Virus record (IMG/VR): IMGVR_UViG_3300037510_000220
Span: 1-55,877 of that record
DNA: 55,877 nucleotides
Source: a virus
Taxonomy: Duplodnaviria > Caudoviricetes
Strand: one strand, 5' to 3'
Below are positions 3,116 to 55,877 of this stretch, piece after piece. Both the position numbers and the translations under genes were made by a program. Numbering within the stretch: position 1 is the stretch's first letter; every line of letters begins with the position of its first letter. The notes below the pieces were generated by a model. The model ran no database searches. It was given only the letters and a program-made list of their open reading frames with translations, and had not been told where the DNA came from.

Positions 3116-4041
3116 GCAACGCCCTCGCTCTCATCAGCGACGAAATCTACGCGCAGCGCGACAACTTTCTCGCTGTCCTGTCCGACACCTCTATCACCTT
3201 TGAACGCGAGGCCGGCTTCGCCATCCAGTCCATCAGCGCCAGCGACTACGCCATCGGCATTGCCACGAAGAACAAGCAGTCGGTCATCAACGCCGTCACG
3301 AACATTGCCGCCATCGGCATCAGCTTGAACCCTGCCAAGAAGCAGGCCTATCTGGTGCCGCGCGACGGCAAGATTTGCCTCGACATCAGCTACATGGGCC
3401 TGATGGACCTGGCCATGAACACCGGCTCAATCAAGTGGGCAAAGGCCGCGTTGGTGCACGAAAAAGACAGCTTCGAGCTGAACGGCTACGACCGGCCGCC
3501 GGAGCACAAATTCAACCCATTTGCCAAAGATCGCGGCGAAATCGTTGGCGTCTACGTGGTGGTCAAAACCGCTGACGGCGAGTATCTGACCCACACCATG
3601 GAAATCGGCGAGGTATTCGCCATCCGCGACCGCTCGACCGCTTGGAAGGCCTACGTCAAGGACAAGTCCAAAACCTGCCCTTGGGTCACGGACGAAGGCG
3701 AAATGGTCAAAAAGACTTGCGTCAAGCAGGCCTACAAGTACTGGCCCAAGACCGAGCGCCTGGAACAGGCTATCCATCACCTGAACGTGGACAGCGGCGA
3801 AGGCCTGCCGCCCCTGCGCAATGATGTGCCGGAGCATGACGTGCGCCTCAAAGAAAAGTGGATCGAGAAGGCCAACGGCGCGCCTGATGCCGAATCTCTC
3901 AAGCGCATCTGGGCCGATGGCCTGGCCGAAATCCGCCCGACCAAGGACATGATCACTTACAACGCCTTCAAGGCCGCCGTCGAGGCTAAGGGGCGCGGCT
4001 TCAATGAGAAGCAGGTTGAGGGTGAGGAGGTGACGCAATGA
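3112..4041 (+). CDS. recT: RecT/Red-beta family single-strand annealing protein
   Basis: GISLNPAKKQAYLVPR, ISYMGL, PWVTDEGEMVKKT motifs; next to exonuclease. Confidence 0.9.
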   Translation: MSNALALISDEIYAQRDNFLAVLSDTSITFEREAGFAIQSISASDYAIGIATKNKQSVINAVTNIAAIGISLNPAKKQAYLVPRDGKICLDISYMGLMDLAMNTGSIKWAKAALVHEKDSFELNGYDRPPEHKFNPFAKDRGEIVGVYVVVKTADGEYLTHTMEIGEVFAIRDRSTAWKAYVKDKSKTCPWVTDEGEMVKKTCVKQAYKYWPKTERLEQAIHHLNVDSGEGLPPLRNDVPEHDVRLKEKWIEKANGAPDAESLKRIWADGLAEIRPTKDMITYNAFKAAVEAKGRGFNEKQVEGEEVTQ

Positions 4042-12716: not shown

Positions 12717-12871
12717 TCTTCTTCTATCGCAATAACGCCAGTCACGGCAACGTGATTTTCATCTGCTACGCCAAGAACATCACCAGCGCCGATGCGCAAT
12801 TCTGCATGGAACTCGGCAAGTTGCCGTCCAAGCTGACGCACATCGGCTGCACGTTTCAGGAGGAATAGAAC

Positions 12872-13681
12872 ATGACCGACCAGCAAGAGCGCGAGGCGTT
12901 CACCGAATGGTACGAGAGTACCGACTTCTTCAAGTCCAATCGACTGCGCCTAGATGACAAGGAAACGCGCCGCGCTGTGCTTCGCAACGTCTGGGAGCAG
13001 GCTCTTGTCAGTTCTCCGCCAGTGCTGCCCGCCGAGTTGAAAGCCGGGCACATGCGGTTCGCGGCCGGCGTGTCTCTGTCCACGGTAGCCAAGTATATCG
13101 AGCGGTTGCAAAAGTACCTGCACGAACTTAAGCCGATGGACCCGGAAAAATCTCAGCAGTTACGCGCTCTGCTTGATGGAATCCAGCGCAGAAACGAGGA
13201 ATTCGAGAAAGGAGGTGATGCCAATGGACCCGACTCAGCTTCCAGTAATGCACAACCGGGGGCGGCGCATCCGGTAAACACGCCGTTTATCAAGGATGCG
13301 GCTTTCTTCGAGGCGCAACGGGCAATCGCCGCATCATTCGCCCGCGCCACCATCCCACAAGGCATGCGGATGGTGCCTACGCGAGTGAGTATCAGCGGCA
13401 TGTACGACATGCACCTATTCCACTCGATACCAGGAGCAACAGTCGAGGAGGTTATTGCCAACTGGCTCAAGCACAACGAGGAACCAGACGAATACGGCAA
13501 GTCATACCTATGCCCGGCGATTGTTCTGTCTGGTGACAAGGAACTTCGCCGCGTCGGCAAGATGGTGTTCCAGGATCGACTGGAAGAATTGGATGCCTAT
13601 AAAGAGGCGCTCTTGGCCGATCCTGACATTTCGCGCTTGCTCGCCGCCGCTCCCCAGCAACCTGACGAGGGCGGGACATGA
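12872..13681 (+). CDS. Hypothetical mosaic protein
   Basis: GGAGG RBS; EREAFTEW start, LLAAAPQQP end. Confidence 0.7.
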   Translation: MTDQQEREAFTEWYESTDFFKSNRLRLDDKETRRAVLRNVWEQALVSSPPVLPAELKAGHMRFAAGVSLSTVAKYIERLQKYLHELKPMDPEKSQQLRALLDGIQRRNEEFEKGGDANGPDSASSNAQPGAAHPVNTPFIKDAAFFEAQRAIAASFARATIPQGMRMVPTRVSISGMYDMHLFHSIPGATVEEVIANWLKHNEEPDEYGKSYLCPAIVLSGDKELRRVGKMVFQDRLEELDAYKEALLADPDISRLLAAAPQQPDEGGT

Positions 13682-14982: not shown

Positions 14983-15426
14983 ATGTTCCACGTGAAACAA
15001 CTCACTTTTGACTCAGAACAACTGCTGACCGAGGCAGAGATTGTTGGCCTGGCGCGGGAAATGAAGGTCTATTGCGGGATCTATTTTTTGATCCTGGATG
15101 ACAAGATCGTCTACGTTGGCCAGTCGAACAACATCTATAACCGCTTGGCGCGGCACATCCACGGCAAGAGCAAGAACTTCAATCAGTTCAGCTTCATCGA
15201 GGTTCCGCTCGATCAACTCAATATGGTTGAGACAGCCTACATTCATCACTTCCGACCAAAGTACAACTTCGGCACCAATGGATTTTTGCGCACGCCGGCC
15301 GTGGAGGCTGGGCTGAACCGCGGGAAGAGCGATCGCAAATCATTGACGCGGCAACTCAAGGAATACAACAAGAAGTGGGAGGGGCGCGGCGCAGAGTGGG
15401 CAAAAATGGTTGCGGAAAAGCTTTAG
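14983..15426 (+). CDS. GIY-YIG nuclease family protein (start uncertain, possibly 15061)
   Basis: GIYFL..VYVGQS..RLARH..E..YI..RPKYN. Confidence 0.85.
   Translation: MFHVKQLTFDSEQLLTEAEIVGLAREMKVYCGIYFLILDDKIVYVGQSNNIYNRLARHIHGKSKNFNQFSFIEVPLDQLNMVETAYIHHFRPKYNFGTNGFLRTPAVEAGLNRGKSDRKSLTRQLKEYNKKWEGRGAEWAKMVAEKL
14984..14999. promoter_or_regulatory. parS: parS site TGTTCCACGTGAAACA
   Basis: Exact match to the ParB/Spo0J consensus TGTTNCACGTGAAACA. Confidence 0.8.
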
Positions 15427-15464
15427 ATCGCTTGAAAAATTATTGCATCTTCTGCAAACCGATC

Positions 15465-15493
15465 TTGACTGCCGCGCCCGACAGGCGCAGAAT
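15465..15493 (+). promoter_or_regulatory. Sigma70-like promoter for the ncRNA/tRNA operon
   Basis: TTGACT-17-CAGAAT immediately before the first stem at 15497. Confidence 0.55.
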
Positions 15494-15496
15494 TTA

Positions 15497-16334
15497 GGCG
15501 CTGGATCGTGTGGCCGCCCAGGAAGGAGAACAGCGGGCAGCATCAATCGAAGCCGGCACCGAATCCCGTAAGCCTGTGCAAAGGTGTTACTCCGCAGGCC
15601 AGTTTGTGGCTACCTGGCAAAGCCTCCGGCGCCCACAGCCGCCTTAGTTGGGGGCTGGAACCGTTCTGCAGAGCGCAACCCCAGTCTAACCCTGCATACA
15701 GGTGCGCAGTGCGCCGCCACCGGATGCGAAATGTCCGGGTCAACACGCATGCGGATTGCAGCCATACATACCCCCTTGGGTTGAGGTCATTTGCCTGCTC
15801 AGCAGGATCAGTCCGCAGCCGCCTTGATGAACAGCAGCAGTACCGAAAACGGGAAATAGCGGGTCGAGTCCGCAGAAGCGATTGGTGAACTTAAGATAGC
15901 CATGAGCAGATCGACTAAGAAAAGTCGCCCGTGCAATACAGCAGCAGTACCGATTTGGTGAATGCGCAGGCTGATGCGCGAATATTAATCCGAGAATGTC
16001 AGCAAAGCCGTGTGAGCGACGACAGAAAGCGAAGCCAGTGGACGGTCCACATTAAATGCCGACTCGGAGAAACTCACATGCCGGGGATCAGCGCCGGCCA
16101 CCAAACTACCTGCCGGCCGTGCGACGGGTACGATTTATGCACGGATGGCAGCCGGGAAAGACCGGCACCAAGAAGCCTGGGTGCCTGGTTAAAAATGCTA
16201 AGGGGCCGTTCATGAGCGGCGATAACTCGAGGCGCGAGGCCCCAGCCTTGTTGGTGACAGCACTGCGGGAGTGGGTCTAACGCCTCCCCGGGCCTGCCGA
16301 TCCGGCAGTGTGGCGGTGAGTCGCCTTCCAACAA
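15497..16334 (+). ncRNA. Putative structured ncRNA region (tandem stem-closed modules) ahead of the tRNA cluster
   Basis: No convincing ORF; closing stems 15497-505/15625-33, 15750-58/15809-17, 15954-60/16099-105, 16248-54/16328-34. Confidence 0.6.
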
Positions 16335-16348
16335 CCACAGGAGCCAGC

Positions 16349-16558
16349 ATGCTACCAAACCGAACCCGCCAGGCCGTTGCAAGCGTCACCAGACAGCTCC
16401 AGGCGCGCGGCGTCCGCGGCATGCACTTCACCTACGCCCCAGGCGCCCACAGGCTCTCCCGCAACCGCCAAGTGCTCGCCCGGGTCCGCGTGCTCAAGGC
16501 GTACCTGCACGGCAAGTCGCGGCCGGCGGCGCCGATCGGCGATTCAGTGCCAGCATGA
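16349..16558 (+). CDS. Small basic hypothetical protein
   Basis: AGGAG RBS before ATG. Confidence 0.55.
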   Translation: MLPNRTRQAVASVTRQLQARGVRGMHFTYAPGAHRLSRNRQVLARVRVLKAYLHGKSRPAAPIGDSVPA

Positions 16559-16756: not shown

Positions 16757-16832
16757 GCCGCTGTAGCTCAGCAGGCAGAGCAGCCGACTCGTAATCGGCA
16801 GGCCATCCGTTCGATTCGGATCGGCGGCGCCA
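16757..16832 (+). tRNA. tRNA-Thr(CGT)
   Basis: Cloverleaf, loop CTCGTAA, TTCGA T-loop, CCA. Confidence 0.9.
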
Positions 16833-16913
16833 AAAAACTTCTTGCATCAAATGCAAATCCGTGGCAGCATCTCGATATCATGAATCGCACCGATCAACCA
16901 CGACCGACCACCT

Positions 16914-16988
16914 CTGGGCGTAGCTCAGTGGCAGAGTCCGCGCCTTGGAAGCGCGATGTCGTTGGTTCGATCCCAACCGCCCAGACCA
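16914..16988 (+). tRNA. tRNA-Pro(TGG)
   Basis: Cloverleaf, CGCGC-CTTGGAA-GCGCG, CCA. Confidence 0.9.
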
Positions 16989-17021
16989 CCCGATCATTAC
17001 GATACCGACTCAGTTAACACT

Positions 17022-17099
17022 GGGCCGATGGCGTAATAGGTAAACGCGACACGCCTCAAAAGCGTGACTCTCTGGGTTCGAATCCCAGTCGGCCTACCA
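17022..17099 (+). tRNA. tRNA-Leu(CAA), short variable loop
   Basis: CACGC-CTCAAAA-GCGTG, TTCGAAT, ACCA. Confidence 0.88.
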
Positions 17100-17104
17100 T
17101 CTAC

Positions 17105-17190
17105 GGGTAGGTGGGTGAGCGGCGAAGCCAGGAGCCTGTAAAGCTCTTACATCAGAAACAGCGCTGGTTCGAGTCCAGCCCTACCCACCA
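17105..17190 (+). tRNA. tRNA-Tyr(GTA)
   Basis: GGAGC-CTGTAAA-GCTCT, long variable region, ACCA. Confidence 0.88.
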
Positions 17191-17196
17191 CGAATT

Positions 17197-17273
17197 GCCC
17201 CCTTGGCCAAATTGGCAAAGGCGCCGCGCTTAGAACGCGGAGATTCTCGGTTCGAGTCCGAGAGGGGGTACCA
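17197..17273 (+). tRNA. tRNA-Leu(TAG), short variable loop
   Basis: CCGCG-CTTAGAA-CGCGG, ACCA. Confidence 0.88.
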
Positions 17274-17279
17274 CGACAC

Positions 17280-17366
17280 GGATTGCGCTGCTGGGTTGGC
17301 CGGCAACTAGTCTCGAAAACTAGGGTGACCGAAAGGTTAGGAGTTCGACTCTTCCGCTTTCCGCCA
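17280..17366 (+). tRNA. tRNA-Ser(CGA)
   Basis: CTAGT-CTCGAAA-ACTAG, long variable arm, GCCA; two acceptor mismatches. Confidence 0.8.
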
Positions 17367-17403
17367 AGAATGCGTAGACTTGGCGCTTACTTGCGAGGTC
17401 TTA

Positions 17404-17763
17404 ATGGGCAACAAAAAGAGCGACAAACTCGGCATGAATGAAGGTACCGCGAGGAATGTTCTCTTGCGCGATACGTTATTCAGATTTGTTGTCAATTCCG
17501 GGCACCACTGCTTTAGGTGTGGCGGCGTCCTGGAACGGAGCAACTTCAGTCTTGACCATATGGAATCTTGGCTGGACGCCGAGAACCCATCCGCCACTTT
17601 CTTCGATCAAGACAACATTGCCTTCAGTCACTTGAGTTGCAATTCGGCCGCCGGCGCAAAAAAGCAACGGCCGAGAAAATATACGCCGGAAGAGGCGAGG
17701 CAACGAGCAAGAGAAAGCCGGCAAAGGTACGAGGCAAAAAAGAAACTCCTAGTCACGGCATAG
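17404..17763 (+). CDS. HNH endonuclease
   Basis: CFRCG..SLDH..NIAFSHLSCN; GAGG RBS. Confidence 0.8.
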   Translation: MGNKKSDKLGMNEGTARNVLLRDTLFRFVVNSGHHCFRCGGVLERSNFSLDHMESWLDAENPSATFFDQDNIAFSHLSCNSAAGAKKQRPRKYTPEEARQRARESRQRYEAKKKLLVTA

Positions 17764-17774
17764 CTCTCCGCCAA

Positions 17775-17859
17775 GGTAGGTTGGCAGAATGGTATTGCAG
17801 CGGCTTGCTAAGCCGTGGGTGGAAACGCCCTGTAGGTTCGATCCCTACACCTACCGCCA
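17775..17859 (+). tRNA. tRNA-Ser(GCT)
   Basis: GCGGC-TTGCTAA-GCCGT, long variable arm, GCCA. Confidence 0.9.
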
Positions 17860-17860
17860 C

Positions 17861-17890
17861 TTGCATCAAATGCAAAACTGTGCGCATAAT
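17861..17890 (+). promoter_or_regulatory. Internal promoter with TTGCA-N5-TGCAA palindrome over -35
   Basis: TTGCAT-18-CATAAT; same palindrome at 16842-16856 and 15443-15457. Confidence 0.5.
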
Positions 17891-17939
17891 ATCGAATGCG
17901 CTTCACTCAATCCACCCGAACAACTACGGCCTAGCTTAA

Positions 17940-18016
17940 GCCGCCGTAGCTCCAATGGTAGAGCGCTCCTTTCGTAAGGGTGAGGTTGCAGGTTCAAGTC
18001 CGTGCCGGTGGCACCA
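17940..18016 (+). tRNA. tRNA-Thr(CGT), second copy, bulged T-stem
   Basis: Loop TTCGTAA, ACCA. Confidence 0.8.
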
Positions 18017-18022
18017 CACACT

Positions 18023-18098
18023 AGTCTTGTAGCTCAGTTGGTAGAGCGCCGGCCTGTTAAGCCGGATGTCCTAGGTTCGAGCCCTAGCTTGACTGCCA
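18023..18098 (+). tRNA. tRNA-Asn(GTT)
   Basis: CCGGC-CTGTTAA-GCCGG, GCCA; two acceptor mismatches. Confidence 0.85.
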
Positions 18099-18101
18099 AA
18101 C

Positions 18102-18206
18102 ATGAAACTCATCGAACTGTTCGCCGCATTTCTTGGAGCCATCTGCGGGCTGGCCATGCGGCTGATTGACTGGACGCTCGGCAGGCGAAGAACCTTCTTC
18201 GACTAA
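18102..18206 (+). CDS. Possible 34-aa membrane peptide between tRNAs
   Basis: MKLIELFAAFLGAICGLAMRLIDWTLGRRRTFFD; no clear RBS. Confidence 0.3.
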   Translation: MKLIELFAAFLGAICGLAMRLIDWTLGRRRTFFD

Positions 18207-18216
18207 GCGCCTCATG

Positions 18217-18290
18217 GCGCCCTTAGCTCAGCGGATCAGAGCAGCCGGCTTCTACCCGGCGGGTCGGGGGTTCGAGTCCCTCAGGGCGCG
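18217..18290 (+). tRNA. tRNA-Arg(TCT), no encoded CCA
   Basis: GCCGG-CTTCTAC-CCGGC; GCGCCCT/AGGGCGC acceptor. Confidence 0.88.
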
Positions 18291-51866: not shown

Positions 51867-51919
51867 GGTCGCTGCAATGCAAAAATTTTTGCTATGGAAA
51901 CGACCAACACGAATAAAGG

Positions 51920-51946
51920 GCCAGCCGATCCGAAGACCGGCTGGCA
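51920..51946 (-). terminator. tR1-like hairpin between cro and cII
   Basis: GCCAGCCG stem with UUCG loop followed by CCTTTATT on - strand. Confidence 0.5.
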
Positions 51947-52127
51947 AGTCCCGGCCGCCAGGGGGATAGCGGCGCTCGCGCGGAGCGGGGACGGGGAGAC
52001 AAACTGGGGCGTGTCAGGCAAGCAAAAACGGCAAAGCAACGGCATTCCGGCAAATTTGCCTAGTCCTTTTGGTCTATGGTTGCGACATGCCATTGGGATT
52101 AGCCTGTTTGTAACAACAACGGGGGAA

Positions 52128-52325
52128 TTAGGAGGCAACCCGCGCGCGCTTCGCCGTCTTGCTACGCTTGGCGTGCAGCGCATAAACGCGCTCGAACACT
52201 TTCCCAGAGCAGGATTTGCCGTGCAGCCACCGATTCACGGTGGACTGGTCAATGCCCAAAGCCTCCGCTAAGGACTTCTCCGTGCCGAAATCCGTGATAA
52301 GTTCTCTGATCATTTTTTCAAACAT
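52128..52325 (-). CDS. cro: Cro-like repressor
   Basis: HTH LAEALGIDQSTVNRW; divergent from cI. Confidence 0.85.
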   Translation of the reverse strand: MFEKMIRELITDFGTEKSLAEALGIDQSTVNRWLHGKSCSGKVFERVYALHAKRSKTAKRARVAS

Positions 52326-52331
52326 GCATAA

Positions 52332-52361
52332 ATTCTATGCGAGTCCGCATGCATCCGTCAA
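52332..52361 (-). promoter_or_regulatory. PR promoter with ATGC-N6-GCAT operator
   Basis: TTGACG-18-TAGAAT on - strand; ATGCGAGTCCGCAT. Confidence 0.6.
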
Positions 52362-52417
52362 ACACTTTCGCATTGAGAATTGCCGCCGGCCATACGGCAA
52401 TGCAATATCTCCTTGAT

Positions 52418-52867
52418 ATGGAAAGCATAAAAGCCCGATTGAACGCCCTCTTTGGTGAGGCGCACGAGCCCAAGGACGCCAAAGTCGCGGAGGAGTCGGG
52501 CGTTTCCCAGCCGACAATCCACCGGATTCGACACGGCATCATCAAAGAGCCGTCGATGCGCACCATCAAGAAGCTGGCCGACTACTTCCGCGTCAATGCG
52601 GAATGGCTGGCTTCCGGGATCGGGGCCAAGCGTGGCGTCAACGCAACCGAACTCCCTCAGGGGGCGGTTGACCTGATCCGTGATTTCGAGAGCCTGCCGG
52701 ATGCCTTTCGCATCTATCTAGTAGGCAAGGCCAGGAAGCTCCGAAAGATTTCCGACGATCTCGAGCCGATCGTGAGACGTAGCCTGGCCTCCCCAAAGGA
52801 CCCAGACCGCTACAAAGAGTGGGAACAGGGCATTGACGAGCTGCTTGATAAGGAGGAGCAGGAATGA
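52418..52867 (+). CDS. cI: CI-like repressor (XRE HTH; no obvious S24 peptidase domain)
   Basis: VAEESGVSQPTIHRI..LADYFRVNAEWLASG. Confidence 0.85.
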   Translation: MESIKARLNALFGEAHEPKDAKVAEESGVSQPTIHRIRHGIIKEPSMRTIKKLADYFRVNAEWLASGIGAKRGVNATELPQGAVDLIRDFESLPDAFRIYLVGKARKLRKISDDLEPIVRRSLASPKDPDRYKEWEQGIDELLDKEEQE

Positions 52868-53076
52868 GAGTTTTGATACTGGCGCTGCTTCTGGCCGGCT
52901 GCGCGACCAAACAAACCTACTGGGAGAAGGCTGGTGCTAGCCAACAGGACTTCTACCAGGACCAGGGCCAGTGCCAGGCACAGGCGTTCGGCGTCACTGG
53001 CATGAACACCCTTCAAGTCGCCATCGTCTACAGCGGGTGCATGCGCGGTAAAGGCTGGTACCAAGTAGAACGCTAA
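52864..53076 (+). CDS. Small lipoprotein co-transcribed with cI
   Basis: Lipobox LLAGC; CMRGKGW. Confidence 0.8.
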   Translation: MRVLILALLLAGCATKQTYWEKAGASQQDFYQDQGQCQAQAFGVTGMNTLQVAIVYSGCMRGKGWYQVER

Positions 53077-53098
53077 GCCGCTTCGCGTTGATCCACTA

Positions 53099-53120
53099 GC
53101 CGCCTTCGGGCGGCTTTTTT
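53099..53120 (+). terminator. Intrinsic terminator of the immunity operon
   Basis: GCCGCC-TTCG-GGCGGC-TTTTTT. Confidence 0.85.
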
Positions 53121-53184
53121 GTTGTCAAAAATCAGCCACTTGCTCGATTCGTGAAAATATTTATGCACGAATGAAAGAAAGTGC

Positions 53185-53213
53185 TTGCGTGATCTTATGC
53201 ATGCGCGCATAAT
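53185..53213 (+). promoter_or_regulatory. PL promoter with ATGC-N6-GCAT operator
   Basis: TTGCGT-17-CATAAT; ATGCATGCGCGCAT in spacer. Confidence 0.65.
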
Positions 53214-53345
53214 CTTTCTATGCGCTTCAAACGCGGCCCGGATGAAGGTTCTAGCCAGATAGCAGCGGCCAAGACACTCCGGCGGGCATGGATCTTCGGA
53301 AGGATGCCGCCGCCAGCGCTGAACCCAATCACTTAGGAGAAAACG

Positions 53346-53681
53346 GTGAGCGAAATCAGCATTAAAGGCATCGACAAGGCGGCGCTTCTGGCAGGCCTTT
53401 ACAACGGCTCGCGCCCCATGGGCATGGGCTTTCTGCAAGCCAAACCGGGCGACATGACCATCGAACAGGCCCGCGAACAGATCGGCATCGGCGATGACGG
53501 CAAACGCATGTTCGGCGCGCACAGCAGCCGCGATCTCTACTTCGACTACGTCTGGGGCCGGCCGCTCAAGATCGACATCAGCGGCGACACCATGCGCACC
53601 GATCTCTACGACCGCGACAACGGCCAAGGCGCCTGTGAGCGCATCGTCAAATCCCTGCTGCCCGAGTCGGCAGCGGCATAA
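53346..53681 (+). CDS. Hypothetical protein
   Basis: AGGAG RBS; ISIKGIDKAALLAGLYN..YFDYVWGRPLKIDI..YDRDNGQGA. Confidence 0.8.
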   Translation: MSEISIKGIDKAALLAGLYNGSRPMGMGFLQAKPGDMTIEQAREQIGIGDDGKRMFGAHSSRDLYFDYVWGRPLKIDISGDTMRTDLYDRDNGQGACERIVKSLLPESAAA

Positions 53682-53714
53682 GTACCAGCAGGCCGGTGGA
53701 AGCCCGGCCAAGTA

Positions 53715-54055
53715 GTGCGATTGGAAGTTGGGCAGCACGGAAGGACGTGCAAAGCAGAGTAGGCAGATGAGGTAACGCACCACATGGCAAATCGTAGTCG
53801 GACCCTTGGGAAGCGCGAACGTAAGGCTGGAAAACGCCATAGGCGTGCTGCTGTCACAACTTGGACCTCGGTCCTTGATGCTGATGGCAGAGCGGTAGCA
53901 GTTACGTTGAAGTACGGACGCAAGCATTCCTCAAGAATCTGGAGGCGCCAAGTCAGGGCTGTGGCCGATGCCGAAAAACGGATAACTGGTACTCCGGAGA
54001 ACTGCTGACTGTACTAGTAGCCGGTATCAAGCCCGGCCCCAACTTCCAACCGCAC
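53715..54055 (+). ncRNA. tRNA-like scaffold enclosing an ORF
   Basis: 17/18-bp closing stem, D-like and T-like hairpins. Confidence 0.55.
53784..54008 (+). CDS. Arg/Lys-rich 74-aa protein
   Basis: GAGGT RBS; RSRTLGKRERKAGKRHRR. Confidence 0.55.
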   Translation: MANRSRTLGKRERKAGKRHRRAAVTTWTSVLDADGRAVAVTLKYGRKHSSRIWRRQVRAVADAEKRITGTPENC

Positions 54056-54084
54056 CGCGACTGAACGCCACACAGGAGCCCACC

Positions 54085-54582
54085 ATGCACCGCCTCACCC
54101 CCTCGAATTCGCTGCCGCATGCGCACTGCCCTGGCGCTACGGTCCTGCCGATCGGCGCCGCCCTCGCCTCCGCCAACCTCAAGGCCGCTCCGGTACTGTC
54201 CGAGGGCGACGAACTGGCCGAGTTTGCCGAGTGCCCCGCTTTCGCCGCGCCGGCCAAGACTACCGTCATCGCCCACGACTTCGGCCGCGTCCTGGCTGAT
54301 GTGAAGGCTGCCGACCTGTCCGAAGCCGAGCAGCGCGCGCAGAAGCTCGTCACCGTCCGCGTGATCCTGGAGCGCATGGGCATGCTCGACATTCGCGAGG
54401 TCCTGGCCGTGGTGGACGTGCTCCGCGCCCAGTGCGATGGCGACAGCAGCGTTGCCTTGCAGGAATGCGGCGAGGCCATCGAGGGCGATCTGCCGGCGAA
54501 AGTGCTGCGCAAGATCGATGCGGCGGAAGCAGCCGAGGCGGCGATGCCGAGTCTGGTGCATTTGCAAGCGGTGAAGGGGTAG
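54085..54582 (+). CDS. Hypothetical protein
   Basis: AGGAG RBS. Confidence 0.65.
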   Translation: MHRLTPSNSLPHAHCPGATVLPIGAALASANLKAAPVLSEGDELAEFAECPAFAAPAKTTVIAHDFGRVLADVKAADLSEAEQRAQKLVTVRVILERMGMLDIREVLAVVDVLRAQCDGDSSVALQECGEAIEGDLPAKVLRKIDAAEAAEAAMPSLVHLQAVKG

Positions 54583-54585
54583 GCC

Positions 54586-54810
54586 ATGGCTACTTTCACC
54601 GTAACCGGGCGCGGCGCCTTCCCCATCGACATGCTGCGCTTCGACGAATGCTGGCCGGTTCGCCAAGGCGAAGATGTCGGCGCCATCGTGCAATCCATCG
54701 AGAACGCCAGCGGCAAGTGGCAGGTGCGCTTGCGCAGCGACAAGCACACCGCTCCTACCGTCAAGCGGTGGGAGTCGTTCTGCTGCACCGTGGAAATTGC
54801 CGAAACCTGA
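54586..54810 (+). CDS. Hypothetical phage protein
   Basis: FTVTGRGAFPIDMLRFDECWP..PT..RWESF. Confidence 0.75.
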   Translation: MATFTVTGRGAFPIDMLRFDECWPVRQGEDVGAIVQSIENASGKWQVRLRSDKHTAPTVKRWESFCCTVEIAET

Positions 54811-55295: not shown

Positions 55296-55877
55296 ATGAA
55301 AATCACGAAGATCACGCCGGAGCAGACTGCCCGGTTCGAAGAATGGACCCGCAAGTGGGTCGAAATCGGCCTGTCCACCGAGCCGGCGAATTTCGAGGCA
55401 GCCACCGCAGCGGCCCTGAAGGCATACGAAGTCGCCAATCTCGGCAAGCCCATGATCGTCCTGCGCATGGGCAGTCCCTACGGAGCGTCACTGGGCGGAA
55501 TTCTGGCGTGGGCCCTATTGCGCGAAGCGCTGAAAACAGACCCCAAAAAACTTGCGGCCGTGCGGTCGCAGGTGGAGTCGCAGGTGCGGTCGCAGGTGTG
55601 GTCGCAGGTGTGGTCGCAGGTGTGGTCGCAGGTGGAGTCGCAGGTGGGGTCGCAGGTGGGGTCGCAGGTGTGGTCGCAGGTGGAGTCGCAGGTGTGGTCG
55701 CAGGTGCGGTCGCAGGTGCGGTCGCAGGTGTGGTCGCAGGTGGGGTCGCAGGTGCGGTCGCAGGTGCGGTCGCAGGTGGAGTCGCAGGTGCGGTCGCAGG
55801 TGGAGTCGCAGGTGGGGTCGCAGGTGGGGTCGCAGGTGGGGTCGCGGGGGGGGTCGCGGGGGGGGTCGCTGGTGGGG
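55296..55877 (+). CDS. N-terminal part of DUF6745-like repeat protein (continues at position 1)
   Basis: GAGGA RBS; MKITKITPEQTARFEEWTRKWVEIGLSTEPA then SQVx repeats. Confidence 0.85.
   Translation, partial: MKITKITPEQTARFEEWTRKWVEIGLSTEPANFEAATAAALKAYEVANLGKPMIVLRMGSPYGASLGGILAWALLREALKTDPKKLAAVRSQVESQVRSQVWSQVWSQVWSQVESQVGSQVGSQVWSQVESQVWSQVRSQVRSQVWSQVGSQVRSQVRSQVESQVRSQVESQVGSQVGSQVGSRGGSRGGSLVG
55565..55877 (+). repeat. 12-bp tandem repeat, 23 clean units then degraded end
   Basis: Directly visible. Confidence 0.97.

Follow-up and report, generated by a model that had tools for sequence, protein, structure and literature searches.

The window analysed here is the complete 55,877-bp record of a virus of the class Caudoviricetes (IMG/VR record IMGVR_UViG_3300037510_000220; 60.6% GC), and all coordinates refer to it unless stated otherwise. 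At positions 53715-54055, the plus strand carries a compact element in which a complete gene for an arginine-rich peptide lies between the two strands of a long closing helix, with one hairpin at the position of the D-arm and another at the position of the T-arm of a tRNA. The first-pass annotation of this sequence had described such a tRNA-like RNA scaffold, and the two arms, both hairpins, the open reading frame (ORF) and the ribosome-binding site (RBS) are each confirmed. Together with the core helices that emerge from the comparison of related loci, the parts of the element are the following:

53715-53732, plus strand: 5' strand of the closing (acceptor-like) helix, GTGCGATTGGAAGTTGGG, with 17 of 18 positions paired to 54038-54055 and one A.C mismatch
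53735-53750, plus strand: D-arm-position hairpin GCACG-GAAGGA-CGTGC, separated from the closing helix by the 2-nt linker CA
53757-53776, plus strand: leader GAGTAGGC-N4-GAGGTAAC, conserved at the nucleotide level in 25 of 25 aligned loci
53769-53772, plus strand: Shine-Dalgarno sequence GAGG ahead of the ORF
53771-53773 and 53775-53777, paired with 53960-53962 and 53964-53966, plus strand: outer core helix GGT.ACG
53784-54008, plus strand: ORF of 74 codons with an ATG start, encoding an Arg/Lys/His-rich peptide
53807-53811/53927-53931, 53816-53817/53919-53920 and 53820-53823/53913-53916, plus strand: inner core helices
53834-53846, plus strand: near-invariant hairpin H1, ACGCC-ATA-GGCGT, formed by the K-R-H-R-R codons
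53848-53851/53887-53890, plus strand: base of a variable hairpin (helix 5), with double changes at four of four pairs
53891-53895/53904-53908, plus strand: hairpin counted as helix 6 of the core
54020-54037, plus strand: T-arm-position hairpin GCCGG-TATCAAGC-CCGGC, abutting the 3' arm without a spacer
54038-54055, plus strand: 3' strand of the closing helix, CCCAACTTCCAACCGCAC, with 29 nt left to the start codon of the following gene (54085)

The minimum free energy fold of the single sequence retains the closing stem and both hairpins, and none of 100 shuffled sequences is as stable (z = -3.1). The segment is a compositional island: the GC content at third codon positions (GC3) of the ORF is 0.49, compared with 0.69-0.92 in the window ORFs that pass a filter of GC3 >0.68. 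No other inverted repeat of 18 nt with at most one mismatch and a spacing of up to 1500 nt is present in the window, and the feature is judged to be real because the arms of related loci differ in sequence yet remain complementary. Among sequencing runs, the stretch is present in one DNA run (possibly the source), as one identical contig with no joint and no variant; no RNA sequencing run containing it is listed.

Relatives of the element were recovered by several searches. A phmmer search against 1.84 billion representatives yielded 19 matches, 14 of which are proteins of 60-91 amino acids (aa) that share the motif G[KR]RERxA[GR]KRHRRA...LKxGRKHxxR...AVAD/ExEK, and a word-index protein search found one relative with 93% identity. 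An alignment-driven scan of IMG/VR gave 20 loci (loci are denoted by L numbers hereafter). A conserved 21-mer was detected in eight contigs of metagenome-assembled genomes, two of which represent the same phages as IMG/VR loci, and in 25 viral contigs, 10 of them new. In total, the ORF family was recovered at 24 loci of viral and metagenome-assembled contigs beyond the window, and in those 10 additional viral contigs, which amounts to dozens of environmental phages that are otherwise unrelated. An exact 36-mer from the window found nothing in viral contigs, and single-protein scans with the window ORF found nothing in metagenome or genome contigs; such a scan of viral contigs produced L002, which was rejected as a spurious, low-complexity match. 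Among 50,697 GenBank phage records, a copy was found in one, BK063674.1 (L039), where it lies unannotated at record positions 12750-13000. The copy comprises the core; its ORF is open and its leader reads GAGTAGTC..GGAGGTAAC. The record is assigned to a Methanosarcinales host; if this assignment is right, the family would extend to archaeal viruses.

In the source annotations, the members of the family are hypothetical or nameless. Neither Pfam nor PHROGs holds a family for 16 members at E-values up to 1, and NCBIfam holds none for 35 members; the best match in a profile search of PDB has an E-value of only 0.78, and ESM Atlas scores of 0.88 or lower provide leads only. The coding signal is clear all the same. 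Frame 0 is open, with a terminal stop only, in all 25 loci, whereas frames +1 and +2 carry one to six stops each; the ratio of nonsynonymous to synonymous substitution rates (dN/dS) is 0.28 (24 well-aligned codons, 294 pairs), and the entropy at third codon positions is about twice that at positions 1 and 2. Judging from these comparisons, the ORF is a real gene under purifying selection, with an Arg-rich peptide of about 60-85 aa as its predicted product.

The family also includes altered copies. In L044 and L048, the 5' part is replaced, the GAGTAG leader is missing and the N-terminus reads KRFKRMRVARKRHRRA; in L054 and L058, the ORF is shortened to 42 codons. On the minus strand, antisense ORFs over the element form clusters in 15-18 loci, probably as a by-product of the conserved DNA.

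The fold of the coding region

The first-pass annotation had placed the ORF-bearing insert, as cargo, in the anticodon-arm position of the scaffold. This part of the description needs revision: as far as can be judged from the alignments, the coding region itself is a conserved multi-helix fold rather than a passive insert. The core alignment, analysed with RNAalifold, comprises 25 sequences from GAGTAGG to GTGGCCGA..GAAA and yields 31 pairs, including one helix added from a 12-sequence alignment. The consensus fold is nested: GGU.ACA of the leader pairs with UGU.GCC located about 190 nt downstream, and this helix encloses two or three inner helices and three central hairpins. Both partners of the outer helix are conserved, the leader as GAGUAGGC...GAGGUAAC and the downstream segment as UGUGGCC, and 96.6% of the cells are paired between columns 15-21 and 277-283. 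For the fold, 93.1% of the cells are paired, compared with 27.1-38.6% when the 3' partners are slid by one to three columns. Cells with changes on both sides number 72, compared with 13-25 in the slid controls and 21.5 +/- 3.6 in shuffled ones (none of 500 reaches 72), and the covariation score is 0.335 vs 0.146; the sequences are related, so the shuffle controls overstate the significance.

The covariation reaches into the encoded peptide. Columns 83 and 203 are paired in 25 of 25 sequences, as GC in 14, CG in 10 and AU in one, and join the first bases of two codons, the one that follows R-E-R and the one in L-K-x-G, so that base changes in this pair alter both amino acids together (Q/V, E/L or K/Y). 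In the window, pair A53823-T53913 of the third inner helix consists of the first bases of codons K14 and Y44. The structure can be placed on the sense RNA because G.U pairs are frequent, among them U.G at columns 17-281 in 24 of 25 sequences, G.U at columns 182-197 in 15 of 25, and five in the 23-bp closing stem of L007 (the latter read by eye).

Hairpin H1 also shows constraint on the RNA. The codons GCT GGA AAA CGC CAT AGG CGT that form ACGCC-ATA-GGCGT are near-invariant, including the third positions. L020 has the variant CGGA-GAT-TCCG, in which two pairs are compensated while the peptide changes from KRHRR to KRRFR; L022 and L016 replace His with Pro or Arg through the loop base only, and BK063674.1 has CCGC-ATC-GCGG, likewise a compensated variant. 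Near the end of the ORF, the frame in which a conserved GCCGAAA block is read differs between members, giving D-S-R-K in some and D-A-E-K in others. Both the two-frame reading and the precedence that the RNA constraint takes over the protein constraint, seen in the invariant third positions and in the retention of H1 despite the His changes and KRRFR, would be expected if the RNA were the main actor, an alternative that is considered below together with the scaffold.

The fold also involves the translation signals. The Shine-Dalgarno region pairs with a distant segment and, in the window, GAGGU lies 11 nt ahead of the AUG, which is itself unpaired in the consensus fold. With the closing helix enclosing the whole mRNA, such an arrangement recalls a type I addiction or toxin module, where an mRNA for a small, harmful basic peptide would be silenced by fold-back and a buried RBS and slowly activated by processing of its ends. 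The occurrence of the element as an autonomous, single-copy unit in accessory-gene positions of unrelated phages fits that possibility as well. With hok-type mRNAs, in particular, the element shares the small ORF, the compact mRNA, the paired ends and the translation signals held in long-range helices; the two differ in that the peptide encoded here is basic rather than a membrane peptide and the junction hairpins are tRNA-like, and no sequence relation exists between them. Most type I toxins are hydrophobic, whereas this peptide is highly basic, and the unpaired AUG also speaks against such a module; no antisense RNA gene or promoter was identified, although no search aimed at antisense RNA was made. 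A toxin module, accordingly, appears improbable.

The outer scaffold and its relation to tRNA

In most loci, the leader is preceded by a hairpin, commonly GCGTG-loop-CACGC, and 0-2 nt ahead of this hairpin lies a 5' arm complementary to the sequence directly 3' of a second hairpin, which is located near or over the stop codon. The layout described for the window (stem, 2-nt linker, hairpin, ORF-bearing segment, hairpin, stem) is in this sense conserved in the relatives. When the full scaffold is defined, by a fixed procedure, as an arm of 7 bp or more with a D-position hairpin no further than 2 nt away and a T-position hairpin directly adjoining, it is present in 12 of the 25 loci (the window, L007, L008, L011, L013, L015, L017, L021, L022, L026, L029 and L030); counted with 7-nt arms, the elements are 301-337 nt long. 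Several others, namely L009, L014, L020 (22 bp) and L052 (13 bp), have a closing helix and lack one hairpin. Among the newly found contigs, L043 and L056 combine the full scaffold with arms of new sequence, L051 has the arms and the 3' hairpin, and L060 is cut by the contig end.

Better pairing within than between loci is indicated by an unconstrained comparison of the upstream 75 nt with the downstream sequence, in which the mean complementarity is 10.35 for the locus's own partner and 8.03 for partners from other loci, a difference that none of 5000 permutations attains. At the seven junction-proximal positions of the 12 full scaffolds, 84 of 84 pairs form within loci, a value fixed by construction, the junctions having been taken from the helices, and 458 of 924 form across loci; arm positions 3-7 show four or five pair types each. 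The hairpin stems covary too: in L029 the D-position hairpin is GCCTG-GATGGA-CGGGC, with compensated stem changes, and in the 12-sequence RNAalifold alignment this hairpin has three double changes at one pair, while covariation is also present in the stem of the T-position hairpin. Covariation is thus found in the arms, the hairpin stems and the core alike.

The loops are another matter. Those at the D-position include GAAGGA, GATGGA, GAAAGCAGA, GACAGTGA, GTGGTGTA, GTGAGA and others, and those at the T-position include TTCGAAT (L017 and L026), TTCAAAT (L021) and TGCAATT (L008). The first-pass annotation had suggested that the peptide recognises the GAARGA hairpin of its own RNA; because the D-position loop varies and the Arg-rich motif is near-invariant, this loop is unlikely to be a specific target. 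In L014, L033, L034 and L030, the motif CGTGCGCTGGAG-N-GTAGGTC occurs within a hairpin 3' of the ORF, and the related GGAGCTTCCACGGCAGCC is found in L017, L021, L023 and L026.

How closely the scaffold resembles a tRNA depends on the member. L017, L021 and L026 have a canonical GGTTCRAATCC T-arm (GGTTCGAATCC or GGTTCAAATCC), of the TCAGG-TTCGAAT-CCTGA type, and closing stems of 7-8 bp, and in L017 and L026 the D-position loop contains GG as well. The window copy and L029 are intermediate: they share the layout and have a long stem and a loop of 8-9 nt of the 'TCAAGC' type. The consensus T-loop of tRNAs consists of 7 nt, TTCRANN. In the window, the D-position hairpin follows a 2-nt linker, its loop GAAGGA contains GG, and the T-position hairpin stacks directly on the 3' strand; the T-position loop TATCAAGC, in contrast, has 8 nt, and the closing stem has 18 bp with one mismatch instead of the 7 bp of an acceptor stem. 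ARAGORN makes no call at the site of the element while finding ten tRNAs at 16757-18290, and Rfam 15 gives no match to the element at E-values up to 10; nor does Rfam match the element in 10 related loci at E-values up to 1, where the tRNA model finds only the true neighbouring tRNAs. With introns allowed, ARAGORN calls one of 20 elements, L017, and in its tmRNA mode none. No 3' CCA is encoded, and G3.U70 is absent from L026 and L017 (by eye). What stands of the earlier description of the scaffold is therefore the layout, reinforced by the canonical T-arms of three relatives; the window copy itself, with its stem, its loop and the lack of an ARAGORN call, does not bear out a tRNA proper. Because ARAGORN recognises only that one element and the window copy is intermediate, 'tRNA-like' is here a label for the architecture of the junction and not for membership in the tRNA family; it probably also describes the origin of the junction.

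L017 is instructive in this respect. ARAGORN models it as tRNA-Trp(cca) with a 212-nt insert that starts exactly at GAGTAGG, and the first 18 nt of the element are those of a 91-nt tRNA-like gene located 130 nt downstream. That gene (L017 positions 3362-3452) is called tRNA-Ser(aga) by ARAGORN and weakly matches tRNA-Sec in Rfam; a repeat of about 45 nt (CCCCGAATTGCTGCGCAATTC...) flanks the element and two tRNA-like genes on both sides. Same-strand tRNA genes lie within 500 nt of the element in L017, L023, L026 and L033. Taken by itself, L017 could be seen as an interrupted tRNA gene from which an intron-like, ORF-bearing segment is removed to yield a working tRNA. For the family, this explanation is very improbable: with one exception the elements are not called as tRNAs, most stems have 9-23 bp, and Rfam yields no group I or group II intron match. 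Moreover, the would-be insert holds most of the conserved structure and pairs with itself, and the hairpins at the D- and T-positions are inherited together with this core, in contrast to the variable acceptor-like arms.

A tRNA-like fold and a reading frame are likewise combined in transfer-messenger RNA (tmRNA, SsrA), in which paired ends, a T-arm and a reduced D region enclose the frame within one RNA. The element differs from tmRNA in having a start codon and a Shine-Dalgarno sequence instead of a resume codon, and in encoding a conserved basic peptide of 60-85 aa instead of a degradation tag. Its helices are nested, as opposed to the pseudoknot ring of tmRNA (pseudoknots were not searched for in the element), and its closing stem has 7-23 bp, with no CCA or alanine identity pair seen. 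Ponchon and Dardel reportedly engineered a tRNA scaffold that takes up a cargo RNA between its D and T arms, so that the cell processes and protects the fold. That construct was designed in the laboratory and holds non-coding cargo in its anticodon stem; the element is natural, its cargo is a structured gene that is predicted to be translated, and many of its copies have over-long closing stems. The YrlA-type Y RNAs (compare PMC4201824) and the P1 C4/P4 CI RNAs are tRNA-like RNAs with functions other than decoding; some are carried by phages and matured by tRNA enzymes. Unlike the element, these RNAs are non-coding and about 80-150 nt long, and no Rfam match to them was obtained here.

These comparisons bear on the alternative raised above, namely that the RNA is the main actor: a dual-function 'mRNA in a tRNA frame', or a non-coding RNA, that mimics tRNA and works in trans together with its own Arg-rich peptide, the scaffold and the core being its functional surfaces. 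Such a particle would be directed at the host translation or tRNA-processing machinery or at tRNA-directed defences, loosely analogous to the tmRNA-SmpB or Y RNA-Ro partnership, and, as a self-contained 300-nt module, would have spread horizontally among unrelated bacterial phages and possibly archaeal viruses. The canonical T-arm of three members, the GG in the D-loop and the adjacency of some copies to tRNA genes agree with this alternative, as does the constraint on the RNA described above. The negative tmRNA result, the acceptor-like stems of 7-23 bp and the absence of an encoded CCA and of G3.U70 do not, nor does the lack of the scaffold in about half of the loci; the ORF, furthermore, comes with a start codon and a Shine-Dalgarno sequence of its own and is under purifying selection. 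A particle that acts in trans is considered rather unlikely.

Genomic setting, spread and proposed role of the module

In the window, the element is surrounded by the following features:

52128-52325, minus strand: small helix-turn-helix (HTH) gene
52337-52867, plus strand: HTH repressor-like (CI-like) gene, divergent from the small HTH gene
51945-51920, minus strand: intrinsic terminator in the early operon of the minus strand
53098-53125, plus strand: intrinsic terminator
53346-53681, plus strand: upstream gene (111 aa), immediately before the element
53692-53708, plus strand: solitary T-like hairpin GCCGG-TGGAAGC-CCGGC, directly after the stop codon of the upstream gene
16151-16166, plus strand: the other GAARGA hairpin, GCCGG-GAAAGA-CCGGC, with an uncertain connection to the element; the tRNA cluster begins about 590 nt further downstream

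A lipoprotein-like ORF lies on the plus strand between the CI-like gene and the terminator at 53098-53125. The AT-rich stretch after this terminator holds the promoter-like sequence TTGCGT-17-CATAAT, and a TTATGCA-type motif is repeated there and in the divergent promoter region (all read by eye). Positions 51900-53220 form an immunity-like region, and the earlier assignment of the element to an early-left operon is reasonable, given the succession of CI-like gene, terminator, promoter-like site and these genes. On the 3' side, small genes follow and then, across the end and start of the record, RecT and an exonuclease. The gene that starts at 55296 and runs off the record end contains, at 55500-55877, 12-nt tandem units that encode SQVW/SQVR/SQVE/SQVG repeats in a plus-strand frame; all other frames are open in this run as well. 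At the DNA level, 53300-54600 has no match among GenBank phages, no relative of a neighbouring 165-aa protein was found, and these searches gave no close relative for a comparison with empty sites, the relatives of the upstream gene (L003-L005) and of a downstream gene (L006) being not syntenic.

The hairpin at 16151-16166, which the first-pass annotation had noticed, lies in a stretch of about 900 nt with little coding signal (15430-16350), between an HNH-like gene (14983-15426) and the tRNA cluster; the RBS context ahead of 16350 (CCACAGGAGCC) is similar to that ahead of 54085. Its GCCGG/CCGGC stem is identical to the stems of T-position hairpins, and similar hairpins are found in L023 and L026 ahead of tRNA or tRNA-like genes and in L017 after the two called tRNAs. 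A partner arm was sought for this hairpin, and the only candidate, an 8-mer at +655, was judged to be due to chance. The window contains only two GAARGA hairpins with 5-bp stems, both on the plus strand and both flanked by GGCA; block shuffles contain a mean of 0.02, with two or more in none of 300, for a pattern that was picked post hoc.

Such a pair of hairpins, at 53735 and 16151, might represent boxB-like nut sites that are bound by the Arg-rich N-terminus of the peptide, so that the latter, as a lambda N-like antiterminator, would allow read-through of terminators. The gene is second after the pL-like promoter that follows the CI-like gene and the intrinsic terminator, its Arg-rich N-terminus resembles N-type arginine-rich motifs, and, as in the lambda N/boxB system, a short Arg-rich N-terminal segment is encoded just past a small hairpin in an early operon. 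This possibility, which the first-pass annotation had entertained, loses much of its appeal once the relatives are considered. The hairpin loop varies while the Arg-rich motif is conserved, and elsewhere the family follows terminase, methyltransferase, helicase or ParB genes or precedes integrase genes. In the window, no comparable GAARGA hairpin is present on the minus-strand early operon and no boxA-like element is recognised by eye, and the protein has no Pfam, PHROG or NCBIfam family signature. An N-like role is decidedly improbable.

Beyond the window, the module appears to be independent of its neighbours. No family of neighbouring genes is common to more than three of 27 loci, and the larger neighbour clusters consist of the ORF itself and of antisense frames over the conserved DNA. 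The neighbours include integrases (L017, L015), a terminase (L009), a methyltransferase (L008), a helicase (L007) and ParB-like proteins (L011, L021), and the GC content of the stretches around the element ranges from 0.44 to 0.61. Some copies seem to have promoters of their own: in L024, TTGACA-17-TATAAT lies directly upstream of GAGTAG, and in L009, TATAAT lies 8 nt ahead of the 5' arm (both by eye). Exactly one copy was found in four of the five whole records searched, and the fifth (L020) has a diverged motif. By these genomic comparisons, the module shows the behaviour of an accessory gene, present in a single copy and moving between phages, and not that of a multi-copy repeat.

Whether the mobile unit could instead be a DNA-level element has to be asked, given that the inverted repeats bound a compositional island of about 340 bp that is present in unrelated phages and that 53682-53709, the solitary hairpin with its 5' flank, is a 28-nt direct repeat of 54011-54038 (71% identity). 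A miniature inverted-repeat transposable element (MITE), with the 18-bp arms as terminal inverted repeats, is nevertheless hardly likely at all: the arm sequences differ between copies and make use of G.U pairs, each genome has one copy (the window and four of five other whole records), no target-site duplication is seen at the arms, and no transposase is present. The solitary hairpin is similar to the 3' ends of elements of the L007/L015 type and may be a remnant of an earlier copy, or may mark the recombination event by which the module arrived. Other known structures were also considered by eye. An integron attC site was rejected, with no GTTRRRY found after the 3' arm, and no cores of hammerhead or other ribozymes were seen, Rfam being silent as well.

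Taken together, these comparisons suggest, tentatively and with a confidence somewhat short of even, that the element at 53715-54055 belongs to an undescribed family of phage modules of about 300 nt, each a self-contained, structured mini-mRNA in a tRNA-like scaffold that would encode an RNA-binding peptide. The scaffold would define and protect both ends of a discrete RNA excised from a longer transcript. Copies with stems of 7-8 bp next to tRNA genes might be cut by tRNA-processing enzymes, and those with stems of 10-23 bp, including the window copy, by a double-strand-specific RNase. The Shine-Dalgarno sequence is half-buried in the leader helix (GGU of GAGGU), which would limit translation. 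The invariant Arg-rich helix of the peptide, finally, may bind a conserved feature of its own RNA, for which the invariant hairpin ACGCC-AUA-GGCGU and the GAGUAGGC leader are candidates, resulting in feedback control or in a small ribonucleoprotein (RNP).

Several observations weigh against this interpretation. A comparable inverted repeat occurs in seven of 60 first-order Markov simulations of the genome, so that the repeat alone is weak evidence. No clear full scaffold is present in L012/L028, L024/L025, L031, L034, L041 and others, about half of the loci, which implies that the scaffold is dispensable for the core. Within the core, apart from the relatedness of the sequences mentioned above, helices 1 and 4 are nearly invariant and give no covariation signal because they hardly vary. 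In L017, L021, L023 and L026, a second GGAGG lies closer to the AUG, so that the leader helix is not a simple Shine-Dalgarno mask in these loci. The AlphaFold model of the peptide has low confidence (predicted local distance difference test, pLDDT, of 59). RNase P measures the 12-bp stack of the acceptor and T stems; the 18-bp stem of the window copy differs from this stack, which makes its tRNA-type processing doubtful.

No published description of the module was found in the full-text literature searched; the supplementary tables of PMC10690425 might list parts of it. This survey of candidate structured RNAs in IMG/VR removed predicted coding regions for DNA viruses. RNA-motif surveys that discard coding regions would miss the module, and gene callers miss it or report a hypothetical protein, so that it goes unannotated, as in BK063674.1.

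The kinds of molecule involved, that is, hybrids of tRNA-like RNA and mRNA and structured or dual-function mRNAs, are rated here as known, and this family of an RNA together with its protein as new. To our knowledge, tmRNA alone is established as a natural molecule that joins a tRNA-like fold to a reading frame. The module described here would be a second, quite different solution, in which a translated gene resides in an RNA that is under structural selection over nearly its whole length. Should the fold guide processing and shield the ends, phages would have come upon the 'tRNA scaffold' trick with which RNAs are stabilised in the laboratory; if the RNA and the peptide form a particle, the module would represent a new small RNP.

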